13,291 nt of DNA from a virus, in the UHGV virus genome UHGV-0257054; one strand, written 5' to 3'. A program made the translations under genes and the position numbers. Positions 1-8,738 of this stretch are shown here, one piece after another. Positions within the stretch are counted from its first letter, which is position 1; every line of letters begins with the position of its first letter. The notes under the pieces were generated by a model, which saw only the letters and a list, made by a program, of their open reading frames with translations, ran no database searches and had not been told where the DNA came from.

Positions 1-65
1 AGGCTGACAGCCTGATTGCAAAATTCAAAGAAGCTGGCGGAACGCTCAGAGAGAGTGAGGTATGA
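1..65 (+). CDS. 3' end of endolysin (lysozyme) gene, partial
   Basis: Frame 3 is open from the window edge ([20 protein letters not shown]) to a TGA at 63-65 that overlaps the Rz ATG at 62 in an ATGA junction. Position directly upstream of Rz/Rz1 matches the holin-endolysin-spanin order of lambdoid and P22-like phages. Too short to confirm by sequence alone. Confidence 0.45.
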
Positions 66-499
66 GCAGAATAACCGCGATTATCTCCGCTCTGGTTATC
101 TGCGTCATCGTCTGCCTTTCATGGGCGGTTAATCATTACCGTGATAACGCCATCGCCTATAAAGACCAGCGCGACAAAGCCACATCCATCATCGCTGATA
201 TGCAGAAGCGTCAACGTGATGTAGCAGAACTCGACGCCAGATACACAAAGGAGCTTGCTGATGCTAACGCTACTATCGAAAGCCTTCGTGCTGATGTTTC
301 TGCTGGGCGTAAGCGCCTGCAAGTCGCCGCCACCTGTGCAAAGTCAACGACCGGAGCCAGCAGCATGGGCGATGGAGAAAGCCCAAGACTTACAGCAGAT
401 GCTGAACTCAATTATTACCGTCTCCGAAGTGGAATCGACAAGATAACCGCGCAGGTTAACTACCTGCAGGAGTACATCAGGACTCAGTGCCTGAAATAA
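62..499 (+). CDS. Rz: Rz-like i-spanin (inner-membrane spanin subunit)
   Basis: 145 aa with an N-terminal hydrophobic segment ([20 protein letters not shown]) followed by a charged, helix-prone periplasmic domain. Has a +1-frame embedded lipoprotein gene (Rz1). Lies after the endolysin 3' end. Confidence 0.85.
261..446 (+). CDS. Rz1: Rz1-like o-spanin (outer-membrane lipoprotein), embedded in Rz in the +1 frame
   Basis: ATG at 261 is preceded by AAGGAG at 248-253. Product [20 protein letters not shown]|[13 protein letters not shown]... has a signal peptide, a lipobox (VSAC) and a proline-rich mature part, as in lambda/P22 Rz1. The ORF track's 255 start is a TTG; the ATG at 261 is more likely. 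Confidence 0.8.
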
Positions 500-530
500 T
501 TTTTTTGCAAATCACAAAGTCAATTTAATG

Positions 531-553
531 AGCCTCGCGATGCGGGGCTTTTT
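531..553 (+). terminator. Rho-independent terminator candidate (first of a tandem pair)
   Basis: GC-rich stem GCCTCG/CGGGGC (one G-U pair), loop CGATG, then a run of five T (549-553), 32 nt after the Rz stop. Confidence 0.55.
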
Positions 554-560
554 GCAATAA

Positions 561-584
561 ATGCGTACCGCAACGCATGTTTTT
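561..584 (+). terminator. Rho-independent terminator candidate (second of a tandem pair)
   Basis: Perfect 6-bp stem ATGCGT/ACGCAT with loop ACCGCA, followed by GTTTTT. An A-tract lies upstream (CAATAAA). Confidence 0.5.
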
Positions 585-699
585 ACACCGAACCTGCCCC
601 TTTGGAATGGGCCTTTGAGGATACCAGTTAGTGCTGGCGAGCCTCGGTGGGCTGGTTTCCTGTGCGGCAAAGGTTCATTTCAAAGAGTAGGTACACGCT

Positions 700-1197
700 A
701 TGAAATCATTAACCCTCTTCAATCAACCAATTCGTATCGGTGAAGATGGCATGATCTGCCTCACTGATATGTGGAAAGCCAGTGGTAAAAGTGAATCTGA
801 ATCTCCGTACCACTACCTGCGAAACAAGCAGACCAAAGAGTTCTTAGCCGAGCTGGAGAAAAACCACGAATCTGTGGTTTTTACTGAGCGCGGTGTACAC
901 GGTGGAACATATGGCGGGAAGTTTGTTGCTTACGATTATGCGGCTTGGTTAAACCCCGGGTTCAAGTACGCGGCCTATAAAGTCCTCGATGACTACTTCA
1001 CCGGAGAACTTCAGCATCGCAACAGCTTAAGTGCGCAGCTCAACATGAAATGTCATGAGTTTGACCAGAAGAAAGACATGGCGAGCTTCTGCGGACAAGG
1101 ACTGGCGGCATGGCGCTATACGAAGCCAGTGTTGGTCGCTGAGATTAACTCCCTGGCTAACCAGCTGCAGATTACGATCCCCGGGCTTCCGGGATGA
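700..1197 (+). CDS. KilA-N domain protein (APSES-type DNA-binding domain; antirepressor/Bro-like family)
   Basis: 165-aa ORF. The N-terminal ~100 aa match the KilA-N pattern as I remember it (IRIGEDGMICLTDMWKASGK..., ...GTYGGKFVAYDYAAWLNPGFKYAAYKVL). Stop overlaps the next ORF's start in ATGA (1194-1197). Confidence 0.6.
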   Translation: MKSLTLFNQPIRIGEDGMICLTDMWKASGKSESESPYHYLRNKQTKEFLAELEKNHESVVFTERGVHGGTYGGKFVAYDYAAWLNPGFKYAAYKVLDDYFTGELQHRNSLSAQLNMKCHEFDQKKDMASFCGQGLAAWRYTKPVLVAEINSLANQLQITIPGLPG

Positions 1198-1451
1198 GTG
1201 ATCGTGTCATTGAATGCGCCTCCAGAGCGGGGCGCGACTTCTCAGAGTTCATGAAAGGCGAGAAGGGCATGATGGAAGCATTGGCCTCGGTGGATGAGTT
1301 TGGCGAGCAGCTGCGCCTCAACGGCTGTGTCAATCATCACTTTGTTAGCTACATGATGCGGAACTCGATCATGCAGGCATTCATGGACATGGCAAAAGCC
1401 GAGAGGAAAGAAGAGCGCCGGCGTAAGCGAGCGGAAGCAAAAGCGAAGTAG
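1194..1451 (+). CDS. Hypothetical 85-aa protein with a highly basic C-terminus, translationally coupled to the KilA-N gene
   Basis: ORF start overlaps the upstream stop (ATGA). C-terminus is KAERKEERRRKRAEAKAK. No family recognised from sequence. Confidence 0.5.
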   Translation: MSDRVIECASRAGRDFSEFMKGEKGMMEALASVDEFGEQLRLNGCVNHHFVSYMMRNSIMQAFMDMAKAERKEERRRKRAEAKAK

Positions 1452-1453
1452 CC

Positions 1454-1488
1454 ATTACAAAGCCTACCTACGGGTGGGCTTGATAATG
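1454..1488 (+). repeat. Copy A of a repeated hairpin element (ATTACAAAGCC ... CCTAC ... GGCTT-GATAATG)
   Basis: Begins 3 nt after the stop at 1449-1451. 9-bp stem AAGCCTACC/GGTGGGCTT (one G-U pair), loop TACG, immediately followed by GATAATG. A second copy lies at 2037-2075. Confidence 0.6.
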
Positions 1489-1677
1489 AAACCGGAGTTA
1501 ATTTCTGGTCACTAATTAACGGCAGTACAGCGATACAACCCAAGCCAGTAAGTGGGGAAATAACACTGGCAGCCACTGAAAGATGAACCTCCTGCCTTAT
1601 GGCAAAAAAGATTCTTTGTGGTGGCGGACTGATGGAAAGACATCCTAATCAAGCAACCACTCCACAGGGTCATAATT

Positions 1678-2034
1678 ATGAACGATCAGCAAATCGAAAA
1701 AGAAATCGTTGAGAAAGGAAAAACCGCTCCGCGAGTTACGCCTCAATATATCGAAAGCATCATTCTTGAAGAGCATTTCTTTACTGCTTATGACGGCATT
1801 CGTGCTGCCAATATGGGCGTTGGCGATTCATGGACAGCGCATAAATCTACAGACCTCCTGACTTTCTGCGTACTGGTGCTGAAGAATGGCTTCACCGTCA
1901 CCGGAGAGAGTGCCTGTGCAAGCCCGGAAAACTTTGATGCAGAAATTGGTCGGAAGATTGCCCGGCAGAATGCTGTAAACAAAATCTGGATGCTCGAAGG
2001 TTACTTGCTGAAGCAGAAGCTAAGCGAACAGTAG
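1678..2034 (+). CDS. Phage protein of the N4-gp49 / Sf6-gp66 family (function unknown)
   Basis: 118-aa ORF. The motif stretch ...TVTGESACASPENFDAEIGRKIARQNAVNKIWMLEGYLL resembles this family as I remember it. Recollection only, no alignment. Confidence 0.5.
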   Translation: MNDQQIEKEIVEKGKTAPRVTPQYIESIILEEHFFTAYDGIRAANMGVGDSWTAHKSTDLLTFCVLVLKNGFTVTGESACASPENFDAEIGRKIARQNAVNKIWMLEGYLLKQKLSEQ

Positions 2035-2036
2035 TT

Positions 2037-2075
2037 ATTACAAAAGCCATTCCCTACAGAATGGCTTTGATAATG
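2037..2075 (+). repeat. Copy B of the repeated hairpin element
   Basis: Begins 3 nt after the stop at 2032-2034. Perfect 10-bp stem AAAGCCATTC/GAATGGCTTT, loop CCTACA, immediately followed by GATAATG. Shares the ATTACAAA(A)GCC prefix, the CCTAC loop core and the GGCTT(T)GATAATG suffix with copy A. Confidence 0.6.
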
Positions 2076-2137
2076 GCTTATACCCTACACGGGATAACTT
2101 AACTGATATCCCTTTTAACGGATAAACGGAGCCAACA

Positions 2138-2380
2138 ATGGCAGAGATTATTCCCATGACTGAAGAACAGAAATTCCAGCTAGAGATTTACAAACTGGTC
2201 ATGAACCAGAACGCAGCCGCAGAGGAAGCATTTCAGTTCATTGGCACTGACGAACTGAAGCTTGAGCTATTCAAAATTCACTTCCAGTCAGGCGGCGCTA
2301 ATTCGGATATCACGATCCGCACATTTGAAGCGGTGCGTAAATCGAAGGAAGCGTTAGACCTGTTCACTACCGGAGCATAA
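2138..2380 (+). CDS. Hypothetical 80-aa protein directly upstream of the small terminase gene
   Basis: ORF with RBS-like AACGGAG upstream. Its stop TAA is 2 nt before the small-terminase ATG at 2383. No family recognised. Confidence 0.5.
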   Translation: MAEIIPMTEEQKFQLEIYKLVMNQNAAAEEAFQFIGTDELKLELFKIHFQSGGANSDITIRTFEAVRKSKEALDLFTTGA

Positions 2381-2382
2381 AC

Positions 2383-2823
2383 ATGGCGCGCCCAACAAAG
2401 TATCAAGAGGCGTATGCCGAACAGGCACGCAAACTGTGCTTGCTGGGCTACACCGATGCAGAACTTGCTGATTTCTTTGAAGTCAGTGAGTCAACTATTA
2501 ACAAGTGGAAGCTTGATTATCCTAAGTTTTCGGAGTCCATAAAAAAGGGTAAGGCCGTCGCTGATGCAGAAGTTAGTGACCGTCTTTATCAACGCGCTAT
2601 GGGCTTTGTGGCTCCAGACATCGATATTCGTGTTATTGAAAACAGAATTGTCGAAACTCCGCTTGAGAAGTATTACCCGCCTGATACAACCGCCGCCATC
2701 TTCTGGCTTAAGAACCGACAGAAGGATAAATGGCGCGACAAGGTTGATCACGAGCTAACAGGCAAAGACGGCGGCGCAATTCAGATTGAAACATCACCGA
2801 TGAGCACTCTATTCGGAAAATGA
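2383..2823 (+). CDS. Terminase small subunit (TerS)
   Basis: 146 aa. The N-terminal helix-turn-helix-like region (GYTDAELADFFEVSESTINKW) is typical of TerS DNA-binding domains. The C-terminal tail ...TGKDGGAIQIETSPMSTLFGK matches my recollection of Sf6 gp1. Stop overlaps the large-terminase ATG (ATGA at 2820-2823). Confidence 0.85.
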   Translation: MARPTKYQEAYAEQARKLCLLGYTDAELADFFEVSESTINKWKLDYPKFSESIKKGKAVADAEVSDRLYQRAMGFVAPDIDIRVIENRIVETPLEKYYPPDTTAAIFWLKNRQKDKWRDKVDHELTGKDGGAIQIETSPMSTLFGK

Positions 2824-4235
2824 CCTCGATTAATCCTATCTTTGAACCGTTCATTGAGGCGCATCGCTACAAAGTTGCCAAAGGCGGTCGAGGTAGCGGT
2901 AAGTCATGGGCAATTGCGAGGCTGCTTGTTGAGGCGGCGCGTCGGCAGCCGGTGCGTATTCTCTGCGCTCGTGAACTGCAAAACAGTATCAGCGATTCGG
3001 TAATCCGGTTGCTTGAAGATACCATCGAGCGTGAAGGGTATACGGCTGAGTTTGAAATTCAGCGTTCCATGATTCGTCATCTCGGAACGAATGCTGAGTT
3101 CATGTTCTACGGCATCAAAAACAACCCGACGAAGATTAAATCGCTCGAAGGCATTGATATCTGCTGGGTGGAGGAAGCGGAAGCGGTAACGAAGGAATCA
3201 TGGGATATCCTGATACCAACCATCCGCAAGCCATTTTCCGAAATATGGGTGAGCTTCAACCCGAAAAACATCCTCGACGATACCTATCAGCGATTCGTAG
3301 TAAACCCTCCCGATGATATTTGTCTGCTGACGGTGAACTACACCGACAACCCGCACTTTCCTGAAGTTCTCCGTCTGGAGATGGAAGAGTGTAAACGCAG
3401 AAACCCGACACTGTATCGTCACATCTGGCTTGGTGAGCCAGTAAGCGCAAGTGATATGGCAATCATCAAACGTGAATGGCTTGAAGCCGCAACCGATGCG
3501 CACAAGAAACTCGGATGGAAAGCGAAAGGCGCTGTTGTCTCTGCGCATGACCCATCAGATACAGGGCCAGATGCTAAAGGTTATGCATCGCGTCACGGTT
3601 CGGTAGTTAAGCGCATTGCCGAAGGTCTGCTGATGGACATCAACGAGGGTGCTGACTGGGCTACTTCGCTGGCGATTGAAGACGGCGCTGACCATTACCT
3701 GTGGGATGGTGATGGCGTCGGTGCGGGCCTACGCAGACAGACAACGGAAGCGTTCTCCGGCAAGAAAATCACCGCCACGATGTTCAAGGGCAGTGAATCG
3801 CCATTCGATGAAGATGCGCCATATCAGGCCGGAGCATGGGCTGATGAAGTCGTACAGGGCGACAATGTTCGCACTATTGGCGATGTGTTCCGCAATAAGC
3901 GAGCACAATTCTATTACGCGCTGGCTGACAGGCTGTATCTGACATATCGGGCGGTTGTTCACGGTGAGTATGCAGACCCAGACGACATGCTGAGTTTCGA
4001 CAAAGAAGCGATAGGCGAGAAGATGCTGGAGAAGCTGTTTGCAGAACTGACGCAGATTCAGCGCAAATTCAATAATAACGGGAAGCTGGAGCTTATGACT
4101 AAGGTCGAAATGAAGCAGAAGCTCGGTATTCCATCTCCTAACCTGGCTGATGCGCTGATGATGTGTATGCATTGCCCAGAGTCGGCTGCGCAACACGACT
4201 ATTCCAGTTACTCAATTCCTTGTGGTGTAGGTTGA
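2820..4235 (+). CDS. Terminase large subunit (TerL; ATPase plus nuclease)
   Basis: 471 aa with a Walker A motif (KGGRGSGKS at residues 21-29) and a Walker B-like motif (ICWVEEAE). Start and length match my recollection of Sf6 gp2. Sits between TerS and portal. Confidence 0.95.
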   Translation: MTSINPIFEPFIEAHRYKVAKGGRGSGKSWAIARLLVEAARRQPVRILCARELQNSISDSVIRLLEDTIEREGYTAEFEIQRSMIRHLGTNAEFMFYGIKNNPTKIKSLEGIDICWVEEAEAVTKESWDILIPTIRKPFSEIWVSFNPKNILDDTYQRFVVNPPDDICLLTVNYTDNPHFPEVLRLEMEECKRRNPTLYRHIWLGEPVSASDMAIIKREWLEAATDAHKKLGWKAKGAVVSAHDPSDTGPDAKGYASRHGSVVKRIAEGLLMDINEGADWATSLAIEDGADHYLWDGDGVGAGLRRQTTEAFSGKKITATMFKGSESPFDEDAPYQAGAWADEVVQGDNVRTIGDVFRNKRAQFYYALADRLYLTYRAVVHGEYADPDDMLSFDKEAIGEKMLEKLFAELTQIQRKFNNNGKLELMTKVEMKQKLGIPSPNLADALMMCMHCPESAAQHDYSSYSIPCGVG

Positions 4236-8697: not shown

Positions 8698-8703
8698 TTT
8701 TAG

Positions 8704-8724
8704 TGGGGCTTCGGCCCCATTTTT
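8704..8724 (+). terminator. Rho-independent terminator just after the coat gene
   Basis: Stem TGGGGC/GCCCCA with TTCG tetraloop, followed by TTTTTATT, 7 nt after the coat stop codon. Confidence 0.7.
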
Positions 8725-8738
8725 ATTGGGAGAAGACA

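Follow-up and report, generated by a model that had tools for sequence, protein, structure and literature searches.

A conserved family of sense-strand stem-loops borders an accessory-gene cassette slot in lambdoid phages

Analysis of a 13,291-nt stretch of the virus genome UHGV-0257054 (hereafter the window), which is an Escherichia coli prophage of the P22/Sf6 type, revealed two stem-loops, hairpin A and hairpin B, that, judging from sequence comparisons, are real members of a small conserved stem-loop family. We consider it moderately probable that they act as RNA stem-loops, formed on the sense strand 3′ of accessory genes, which double as linkers, offering short stretches of homology at which cassettes are exchanged. 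The locus is arranged as follows:

1194..1451, + strand: hkbL-like gene, 85 aa (ORF list, HK620 hkbL annotation)
1453..1488, + strand: hairpin A (sequence, fold, covariance model), composed of the outer 5′ arm CATTA (1453-1457), internal loop CA (1458-1459), inner 5′ arm AAGCCTACC (1460-1468), loop TACG (1469-1472), inner 3′ arm GGTGGGCTT (1473-1481), internal loop GA (1482-1483), and outer 3′ arm TAATG (1484-1488)
1489..1515, + strand: variable spacer with the small hairpin ACCGGAG..TTCTGGT (locus comparison)
1516..1644, + strand: conserved non-coding block, near-invariant among >120 phage contigs
1645..2034, + strand: gp49-like cassette, i.e., leader (1645-1677) and gene (1678-2034; PF13876, E = 1.7e-34)
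2033..2078, + strand: hairpin B (sequence, fold, covariance model), composed of the outer 5′ arm AGTTATTA (2033-2040, overlapping the stop codon), internal loop CA (2041-2042), inner 5′ arm AAAGCCATTC (2043-2052), loop CCTACA (2053-2058), inner 3′ arm GAATGGCTTT (2059-2068), internal loop GA (2069-2070), and outer 3′ arm TAATGGCT (2071-2078)
2079..2137, + strand: conserved right flank TATACCCTACACGGGATAACTT..., running up to the DUF2560/hkbM start codon
2138-2380: DUF2560/hkbM gene, at whose start codon the right flank ends

The earlier note had described two copies of a hairpin followed by GATAATG, and both are present at these places on the + strand, each forming, according to the sequence and the folds, one two-part stem-loop. 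Copy A reads ATTACAAAGCCTACCTACGGGTGGGCTTGATAATG (1454-1488) and copy B ATTACAAAAGCCATTCCCTACAGAATGGCTTTGATAATG (2037-2075); the former follows the stop codon TAG of the hkbL-like gene (1449-1451), with 1 nt between this codon and the start of hairpin A at 1453, and the latter is preceded by the TAG at 2032-2034. The stem lengths given, 9 bp in A and 10 bp in B, are correct, and the sequence past either stem indeed lacks a U-tract. However, the element is larger than was described, as an outer helix beyond the inner stem had been overlooked: CATTA pairs with TAATG in A, and AGTTATTA with TAATGGCT in B, with the CA/GA loop lying between this helix and the inner stem. GATAATG is therefore part of a helix, because it pairs as the 3′ arm of the outer one. 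In the family architecture, the outer helix is YATTR/YAATG and the inner one has 9-10 bp; a 2x2 internal loop (CA/GA) parts the two, and a loop of 3-6 nt caps the inner helix, giving 5 + 2 + 9 stacked positions in A and 8 + 2 + 10 in B and in B′, an allele of the B site described below. A CCTAC loop core, which the two copies were said to share, is not conserved, the loops of relatives being TACG, TACT, AAT, TATA, and others.

The folding energies, whose prediction had been proposed as a check, were computed, and both copies proved stable, with -20.9 (A) and -20.6 kcal/mol (B) when the outer helix is included, and z-scores of -4.4 and -6.9, respectively. When the 701-nt transcript 1440-2140 was folded, both hairpins were retained in the MFE structure as well as in the centroid, and the minus-strand folds of both were weaker. 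As to the statement that the pair directly brackets the gp49-like gene, it holds for B, which adjoins the gene, but approximately 190 nt (spacer and conserved block) separate the gene from A; the unit bracketed by the two hairpins is the spacer, the conserved block, and the gp49 cassette.

The search against other phage genomes, also suggested earlier, was carried out, and it was found that the element recurs and marks mosaic boundaries. A structural-motif scan of the window returned exactly A and B, both on the + strand, and the same scan gave 194 matches in 1.14 Mb of related phage DNA versus 3-4 in shuffled DNA. The covariance model, which was built partly from A and B themselves, scored them at 54.1 and 51.2 bits, respectively, the next-best match within the window reaching 13 bits. 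Among about 240 related phage contigs, the family was found solely in the accessory region, where each stem-loop follows an accessory gene at a distance of a few nucleotides on the 3′ side. These sites belong to the lysis-to-terminase segment of the late operon and, in some cases, to its Q-to-holin segment; the carriers are lambdoid phages (P22/Sf6-like, HK97-like, and Stx). Application of a looser structural scan and of the covariance model to approximately 2.2 Mb of related loci and to the whole Sf6 genome added, beyond the A, B, and B′ sites, only two loci, L024 and L058, whose inner stems (AAGCGTCTA/TGGGCGCTT and GGATGCA/TGCATCC) are wholly unlike those of A and B and whose outer arms are the same. 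The whole Sf6 genome contains two copies, and each single-hairpin locus contains one. A scan of genome contigs anchored on the right flank yielded 11 loci with both the flank and a family hairpin, including one new variant, which came from E. coli, E. albertii, Shimwellia, and six MAG bins (these six being probably mis-binned), while the two remaining matches were unrelated, chance ones. No Rfam family was matched at the gathering threshold over the whole window, and a permissive search of positions 400-2400 gave chance-level matches only (E up to 10). No paper describing these hairpins was found in a literature search whose reach did not extend to Clark et al. 2001.

Comparison of the variants shows that the predicted helix, rather than its sequence, is conserved, and that it is conserved on the sense strand. 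Across 46 position-anchored, unfiltered variants, 96.4% of cells were paired, as compared with 33-50% in slid registers, and changes on both sides were found at 6 of 14 pairs; at the A site, the helix is kept in 17 position-anchored variants. The commonest B-site allele is B′, with the hexamer GACAAT (74 of 116 B-site copies), in which the T-to-C change is offset by, and co-varies with, ATTA-to-ATTG on the opposite arm. Between B and B′, moreover, the inner AAA/UUU is exchanged for GAG/CUC and an outer A-U pair for G-C. B′ is carried, with its compensatory changes, by phages in which the slot is empty; a 35-codon ORF runs through it in these phages, several B′ polymorphisms are synonymous in that frame, and coding constraint could mimic part of the pairing signal at B′. 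This 35-aa frame is the sole one called among the small ORFs of the block region, and it is called in a few metagenome annotations. Within the inner stem, 12 G.U states were counted against three A.C states, two of which derive from one chimera, and G.U is often the majority allele; the asymmetry, counted as states among variants related by descent, is modest (p = 0.035). Both the motif scan and the covariance model detect the elements on the + strand only. Maintenance of the helix by compensatory change implies a function beyond homology, and the G.U bias points to RNA.

The conservation is not uniform. Outer-helix mismatches are common (CATCA in 21 of 41 B copies, CATTC in 23 of 81 A copies), hairpin A is degraded in HK97 (-10.1 kcal/mol), and variants with GGGGGGCTT or GTCTA exist. 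Such degraded copies, as well as the fact that A, B, and B′ can be aligned and have arms in common, would fit the idea that the hairpins have no present function, having been inherited from a single ancestral 3′ untranslated segment that was copied together with neighbouring genes, and that they are visible only since intergenic joints are tolerated. We find this very doubtful, as 96% pairing is kept among alleles that diverge from each other at 6 of 14 stem pairs, the same architecture is built from unrelated inner stems, and the element survives beside at least eight left contexts and several right ones.

The hairpins are not likely to be terminators or promoters. Extremely improbable is the terminator-promoter unit proposed in the earlier note, in which the hairpin would halt upstream transcription and GATAAT would serve as the -10 hexamer of the next gene, similarly to the PeSLs (promoter-early stem-loops) of T4-type phages. 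GATAAT does have the A2 and T6 of a -10 hexamer, and PeSLs pair a stem-loop with a promoter (PMC2839356), but the promoter scan was empty at 1440-1500 and 2030-2090, the TG extension is absent, and the sole TTGACA-like hexamer, TTACAA (3/6 matches), is located upstream by 21 nt in A and by 25 nt in B, where a spacing of 16-18 nt is needed. Furthermore, most B-site copies carry GACAAT, co-varying with the 5′ arm, and the 3′ arm of the outer helix fully accounts for GATAATG. Neither the promoter scan nor the sequence gave a -35 element at a usable distance at either copy, no AT-rich UP region is present in the sequence, and the scan detected no promoter for the gp49 cassette.

Somewhat less remote, and still unlikely, is the idea that the hairpins are weak, non-canonical terminators or attenuators, which would insulate prophage-expressed morons and be read through by Q-modified polymerase in the lytic state. 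It is in line with the stable GC-containing stem located directly past the stop codon, with the U-containing tail past the inner stem (UUGAUAAU in A, UUUGAUAAU in B), and with the efficient termination of transcription by PeSL stem-loops in reporters (PMC2839356). Among the features of an intrinsic terminator, the GC-rich stem-loop is present, with inner stems of 9-10 bp, and a conserved U-tract (≥5 U in 8 nt) is absent, the tails being GAUAAUG. The terminator scan calls neither site, yet it calls canonical terminators in the window, and the phage has textbook ones at 531-553, 561-586, and 8702-8727. In B′, UUU is replaced by CUC with compensation in the 5′ arm, i.e., pairing and not U-richness is conserved, and a canonical U-tract terminator is located right 5′ of B in three cassette types and in E. 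albertii; both observations also speak against the terminator-promoter unit. For annotation purposes, GATAATG should not be taken here for a promoter, nor the hairpins for classic terminators.

Another suggestion of the earlier note, a moron boundary or recombination joint, was supported by the comparison of loci. In BLAST comparisons with 123 related loci, the homology breakpoints gather at the edges of the hairpins, with pile-ups of HSP ends at window positions 1440-1459, 1490-1499, 2040-2049, and 2070-2079, and 102 HSP ends fall within 1640-1649; the cassette slot has its left joint at the right end of the conserved block, GACATC (1639-1644). In at least 120 phage contigs, a single A-type hairpin is joined straight to the right flank of B, and the junction of GGGCTTGATAATG with GCTTAT is present in at least 120 contigs without the conserved block (e.g., in Stx2 phages 1717 and 2851). 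With respect to such single-hairpin phages, window positions 1489-2075 (spacer, block, gp49 gene, and hairpin B) constitute an indel, whose ends fall in TTGATAATG, common to A and B. The two-hairpin state is found in HK620, Sf6, and the window prophage, and the one-hairpin state in Stx2 phage 1717, so that cultured phages represent both states. The slot, located just 5′ of B, accommodates at least six alternative cassettes, gp49 among them, all of which terminate at hairpin B. The hairpins stand out as islands of identity between stretches of unrelated DNA, bordering at least eight left contexts and several right contexts, and the stop codons of unrelated upstream genes precede the hairpin by 1-14 nt. 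The comparison also identified a single chimeric B/B′ hairpin (L116) and a single cassette placed inside the 5′ arm of B′ (L059), and the chimeras are joined at micro-homologies, e.g., GAGTGG and GCC. It should be stressed that clustered joints fit selection for any function, and that clustering does not prove crossovers inside the hairpins.

The spacer (1489-1515) is replaced by one of approximately 130 nt in HK620 and Sf6, and it is missing where the stop codon of a different gene adjoins the conserved block. The variation of the block (1516-1644) is too low for covariation analysis and its fold is not unusual (z -1.1), which leaves the idea of a structured RNA there without support. A Pfam scan of the 85-aa hkbL-like product gave zero matches. 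The query 1400-2140, which takes in A and B, the conserved block and gp49 gene between them, and the right flank, is matched at least in part by about half of the complete E. coli genomes.

The layout of the slot also raises the question of whether the hairpins are dedicated recombination sites at the DNA level, recognised as a hairpin or cruciform by a phage or host enzyme (in the manner of integron attC sites, of PeSLs with a helper protein, or of IS200/IS605-type ends) and driving cassette capture and excision. The cassette-like order of an ORF followed by a hairpin, the existence of both one-hairpin and two-hairpin states, the variation of the inner stem with the outer arms kept, and the position of the joints exactly at the ends of the outer helix are all consistent with such a role. 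We nevertheless regard it as very unlikely, given that no recombinase is associated with the elements, that they lack both the core consensus of attC and its extrahelical bases, that each genome has no more than one or two of them, and that the G.U bias indicates RNA. In addition, chimeras join at ordinary micro-homologies, as general recombination predicts, and the reciprocal (circle) junction was not found, GGCTTTGATAATGAAACC giving only five unrelated chance matches in viral contigs, where circles are not normally assembled. In the Sf6 genome annotation, there is no IntI-type integron integrase, only the prophage integrase, and no Y1/RAYT-type transposase, only that of IS911 (IS3 family).

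In a broader version of the same idea, which we hold to be quite unlikely, temperate lambdoid phages would possess a cassette-exchange system (PeSL/attC-like) with the hairpins as its functional core. Folded on the sense strand, either as ssDNA during recombination-dependent replication or as a cruciform, they would offer a preferred entry for annealing or junction-resolving enzymes of the phage itself (Erf/Red-beta, NinG/Rap-type), and single-gene cassettes such as gp49 would be captured, excised as circles, and exchanged at a defined slot among P22-like, HK97-like, and Stx phages. If this were true, a part of lambdoid mosaicism would be site-directed and not random.

Several known classes of DNA element were compared with the hairpins and rejected. 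Integron attC sites have RYYYAAC/GTTRRRY cores, and not the arms YATTRCA/GAYAATG with a symmetric 2x2 loop; REP or IS200-IS605 repeats, which are dispersed in many copies per genome, do not agree with two copies in the whole Sf6 genome and one per single-hairpin locus; a protein operator is at odds with a half-site spacing of 26 to 30 nt and an inner sequence free to vary; and a pac or cos site is incompatible with the presence of the same element in both cos and headful phages.

According to the reading that we prefer, i.e., sense-strand RNA stem-loops doubling as homology linkers, the hairpins would form in late mRNA, where their most likely role would be that of 3′-exonuclease barriers or RNase III-type processing sites, uncoupling neighbouring cistrons. 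Phage recombination of the Red/Erf type would swap, insert, and delete cassettes at the patches of homology that the hairpins may provide, because they are the only sequence common to otherwise unrelated cassettes; lambda Red recombination across short or diverged homology is established (PMC2327257). An RNA processing or stability hairpin, which the earlier note had listed as well, is compatible with the pairing conserved on the sense strand through compensatory and G.U changes, although in some cassettes a canonical terminator directly 5′ of B makes a stabiliser of the upstream gene redundant. The general and long-standing question is whether lambdoid mosaicism arises via homologous recombination at short conserved linkers or via random illegitimate joining followed by selection. 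It has stalled because most mosaic boundaries show no conserved sequences that could be found (PMC3029335). The locus described here presents a concrete, widespread, and testable case, with a structurally constrained hairpin of 36-46 nt exactly at the joints of a cassette slot.

Intercistronic mRNA hairpins are known as RNase III sites and 3′-exonuclease barriers, as exemplified by the T7 R sites and REP-type stabilisers, and RNase III sites span some two turns of dsRNA, in which an internal loop often breaks the helix. Similarly, A and B are predicted to be stable hairpins between the cistrons of a long polycistronic transcript, directly past stop codons and on the sense strand, and have a two-part helix with an internal loop and about 16 (A) to 20 (B and B′) stacked positions. 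A is short for an RNase III substrate.

The closest analogues are the boundary sequences of lambdoid phages, treated below, and the PeSLs of T4-type phages (Arbiol et al. 2010, PMC2839356; PMC4122927). The PeSLs are likewise conserved intergenic stem-loops around non-essential or variable ORFs in hyperplastic regions; where one phage has an ORF between two motifs, a related phage has just one motif. Crossovers have been mapped to the stem-loop or its immediate vicinity, chimeric motifs are the result, and a role as linkers for homologous recombination has been proposed. However, a PeSL consists of a strong sigma-70 early promoter and an efficiently terminating stem-loop, whereas A and B have neither a promoter nor a U-tract. 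They also differ from PeSLs in their location in the late, antiterminated operon of temperate lambdoid phages, in the two-part stem with a CA/GA internal loop (the PeSL stem being GGGG...CCCC), and in the presence of only one or two copies per genome. Recombination between flanking PeSLs also yields excised mini-circles; the corresponding reciprocal junction of A and B was not found in viral contigs, into which circles would not normally be assembled.

Boundary sequences of lambdoid phages and the linkers of the modular theory (Clark et al. 2001; Susskind and Botstein 1978, both as cited in PMC3029335) resemble the hairpins in being short conserved sequences at junctions of non-homologous modules in several lambdoid phages, for which a role as substrates of homologous recombination was proposed. 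In the Sf6 record, bsq2-bsq7 are annotated elsewhere, with nothing at 37835-37870 or 38499-38538, where the hairpins flank gene 66, and the HK620 record has no bsq features in the stretch 17,000-20,200, which covers hkbL-hkbM. The Sf6 record gives bsq as a plain 'boundary sequence', with structure unmentioned, whereas the helix of A and B is kept by compensatory change. Finally, the cassettes of the slot are similar to the morons of lambdoid phages (Juhala/Hendrix, a concept quoted in PMC2629481 and PMC2839356), as they are extra genes that occur in some relatives only and are inserted between late-operon genes, and some of the alternative cassettes carry their own canonical terminator; unlike in the case of morons, the slot has fixed limits here, set by a conserved block and by the conserved hairpins that flank it.

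The window corresponds to the late region of an E. coli prophage, P22/Sf6-like (Lederbergvirus-type); over the queried stretch 1400-2140 it shows 100% identity to NZ_OZ039045.1. In this region, a conserved, strand-biased, two-part helix lies precisely at the joints of a cassette slot, as hairpin A (1453-1488) and hairpin B (2033-2078), which confirms and extends the earlier observation of two hairpin copies flanking the gp49-like gene.

Gene order and canonical terminators (GC stem and T-run) of the window
62-499, + strand, Rz
531-553 and 561-586, tandem pair of terminators directly 3' of Rz
700-1197, + strand, KilA-N
1194-1451, + strand, hkbL-like gene
1678-2034, + strand, gp49/Sf6-gene-66 family gene (PF13876)
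2138-2380, + strand, DUF2560/hkbM
after hkbM, + strand, small terminase, large terminase, portal, scaffold and coat, assigned from position and size
8702-8727, terminator directly 3' of the coat gene ("t coat" of the Sf6 record)

The 146-aa ORF in the small-terminase position (2383-2823) had no Pfam match at E <= 0.01.

Re-reading of the sequence placed both copies where the earlier note had them, and folding extended them beyond its limits. Outside the inner stem of 9-10 bp there is, in A and B alike, a symmetric CA/GA internal loop followed by an outer helix (CATTA/TAATG in A, AGTTATTA/TAATGGCT in B). The GATAATG, previously described as following the stem, is therefore part of the structure, with GA in the internal loop and TAATG in the outer helix (3' arm). 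Predicted folding energies, a check proposed for the pair, were -20.9 kcal/mol for A and -20.6 kcal/mol for B (z-scores -4.4 and -6.9, respectively), and both hairpins were kept when the 701-nt stretch 1440-2140 was folded (MFE and centroid structures). A scan on structure alone (outer helix of 5 bp, CA...GA, inner stem of at least 7 bp with full pairing) indicated A and B as the sole matches within the window, both on the + strand. In related phage DNA (1.14 Mb), it gave 194 sites, versus 3-4 in shuffled DNA.

For the comparative analysis, 120 IMG/VR contigs were retrieved by anchoring the search in the non-coding block that separates A from the gp49 gene, a second scan gave at least 120 further contigs, and the phages HK97, HK620, Sf6 and Stx2 phage 1717 were also included. 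Within the related contigs there are two sites and three alleles, i.e., A, placed after hkbL or other genes, B, placed after a cassette, and B' (GGTTATTGCAGAGRCCATTCAATGAGTGGTCTCGACAATGG), found at the B site where the slot between GACATC (1644) and the B-site hairpin is empty. The CA/GA loop is identical in B and B', which differ at the inner-stem base (AAA/UUU vs. GAG/CUC) and the outer-helix top (A-U vs. G-C). Across 46 position-anchored variants, unfiltered for pairing, 96.4% of cells were paired, compared with 33-50% in slid registers, and both-sided change occurred at 6/14 pairs; as the sequences share descent, these figures overstate independence. Copies are few in any single genome: whole Sf6 carries two and each single-hairpin locus one. 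Two more family members, placed in the Q-holin interval around a NUMOD4-HNH endonuclease gene, keep CATTACA...TAATG with unrelated inner stems (AAGCGTCTA/TGGGCGCTT and GGATGCA/TGCATCC).

This NUMOD4 + HNH_3 homing-endonuclease gene lies between Q/tR' and the holin gene in L024 (5007-5663) and L058 (8753-9330, - strand); the hairpin with the wholly different GGATGCA/TGCATCC stem is 3' of it in both loci, and L024 has a second family hairpin 5' of it. In a B' copy of L054 (4043-4079), the GA side of the internal loop is changed to TG, so that the loop pairs and the helix is perfect over 19 bp (-26.7 kcal/mol).

Counted by states, the inner stems had 12 G.U versus 3 A.C (p = 0.035). At several positions most copies carry G.U (e.g., 77/81, 44/75, 39/41, 71/75), while the A.C states are singletons, two of them from a single chimeric hairpin. 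As G.U on the + strand equals A.C on the - strand, this excess, together with the weaker folds of the - strand, points to the sense strand as the one on which the structure is read, with late mRNA the simplest case. In empty-slot phages, a 35-codon ORF (MAKKILCGGG..., annotated in a few metagenome records only) crosses B', and several B' polymorphisms are synonymous in its frame, others being stop codons; since A and B are positioned after stop codons, this caveat is limited to B'.

The earlier note had considered GATAAT a plausible -10 hexamer and the element a possible terminator-promoter unit. The promoter scan found no promoter at either copy, the nearest TTGACA-like hexamer being 21-25 nt upstream; moreover, the B-site hexamer is GACAAT in 74/116 copies, and its T/C change is matched by ATTA/ATTG on the 5' arm. 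The promoter and terminator-promoter readings are therefore not supported. A terminator is not convincing, as A and B have no U-tract in the terminator scan and the stem-base UUU changes to CUC with compensation. Textbook terminators are used elsewhere in the window (531-553, 561-586, 8702-8727), in contrast to the U-less A and B, and a canonical GC-stem and T-run terminator stands immediately 5' of hairpin B in three alternative cassette types and one E. albertii copy.

The reading as a recombination joint or cassette boundary is supported by comparative sequence data, i.e., clustered HSP ends, alternative cassettes and single-hairpin junctions. BLAST of window 1-3000 against 123 loci gave HSP ends concentrated at or within the hairpins and at block and hkbM edges.

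HSP ends in the window
1440-1459, 70 starts, left edge of A
1490-1499, 37 ends, right edge of A
1500-1529, 76 starts, left edge of the block
1640-1649, 102 ends, GACATC
2040-2049, 21 starts, within B
2070-2079, 59 starts, within B
2370-2389, 66 ends, end of hkbM

Position 1644/1645 is a hot recombination joint, where the same GACATC leads, depending on the phage, into one of at least six alternative cassettes or into none.

Slot content
nothing, 73 loci
gp49 cassette, about 20 loci
23-aa ORF cassette, 12 loci
57-aa ORF cassette, 4 loci
80-aa or 71-aa ORF cassettes, 6 loci
1.3-kb cassette with a 246-aa ORF, inserted inside the 5' arm of B', 1 locus

One locus has a chimeric hairpin (B 5' half, B' 3' half). 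In at least 120 contigs, including Stx2 phages 1717 and 2851, an A-type hairpin is fused to B's right flank at a junction of GGGCTTGATAATG with GCTTAT; the gene on the left of the junction is one of at least six (in phage 1717 the order is Rz - KilA-N - hkbL - single hairpin), and among the matches listed the block is absent from every contig with this junction. In a four-way alignment, the Stx2 sequence tracks window A through GATAATG and then B's flank, so window 1489-2075 is an insertion/deletion relative to single-hairpin phages, with end points within TTGATAATG common to A and B. The reciprocal junction was not found in viral contigs. There are at least four contexts where an unrelated upstream gene ends 1 nt short of the hairpin, and a further three where the distance is 6-14 nt.

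The block itself (1516-1644, about 130 nt, non-coding) shows almost no variation across more than 120 phage contigs, although what lies to its left varies: in some hairpin A and a spacer (short or long), in others a different gene whose stop codon directly abuts it. It matched no Rfam family (Proteo-phage-1 at 1539-1574, 16.8 bits, is at chance level), its fold is ordinary (z -1.1), and small unproven ORFs in it are MNLLPYGKKDSLWWRTDGKTS and the one that runs through B'. The right flank (2079-2137, TATACCCTACACGGGATAACTTAACTGATATCCCTTTTAACGGATAAA) is conserved, contains two small hairpins and is followed by hkbM/DUF2560 in the window or GGTATTCAAGC... in Stx phages; the flank is possibly one more linker segment. 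Short contigs with this E. coli phage region in Cellvibrionaceae, Nanosynbacter, Bacillota and Collinsella MAG bins (L256, L257, L258, L264, L265) are probably mis-binned or contaminant.

An RNA role is plausible by analogy: the hairpin would provide 3' protection or a processing site in late mRNA, for which T7 RNase III sites and REP-type stabilisers are models. Being the sole sequence common to unrelated neighbours, it would likewise offer the homology patch through which phage recombinases, known to recombine diverged homology (PMC2327257), exchange cassettes. The RNA and linker roles are not mutually exclusive, and the locus is a concrete, common and manipulable one for the debate on linker versus illegitimate recombination.

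In the literature searched, no description of these hairpins was found. The concept of lambdoid boundary sequences fits A and B (PMC3029335). The carefully annotated Sf6 record has bsq features elsewhere and leaves its hairpins of the A/B type unannotated. PeSLs of T4-type phages, in which a regulatory stem-loop doubles as a recombination linker (PMC2839356), are a precedent for the dual role, but A and B, having no promoter, fall outside them. The hairpins are akin to boundary/linker sequences, PeSL-like motifs and intercistronic hairpins, of which they are a variant.
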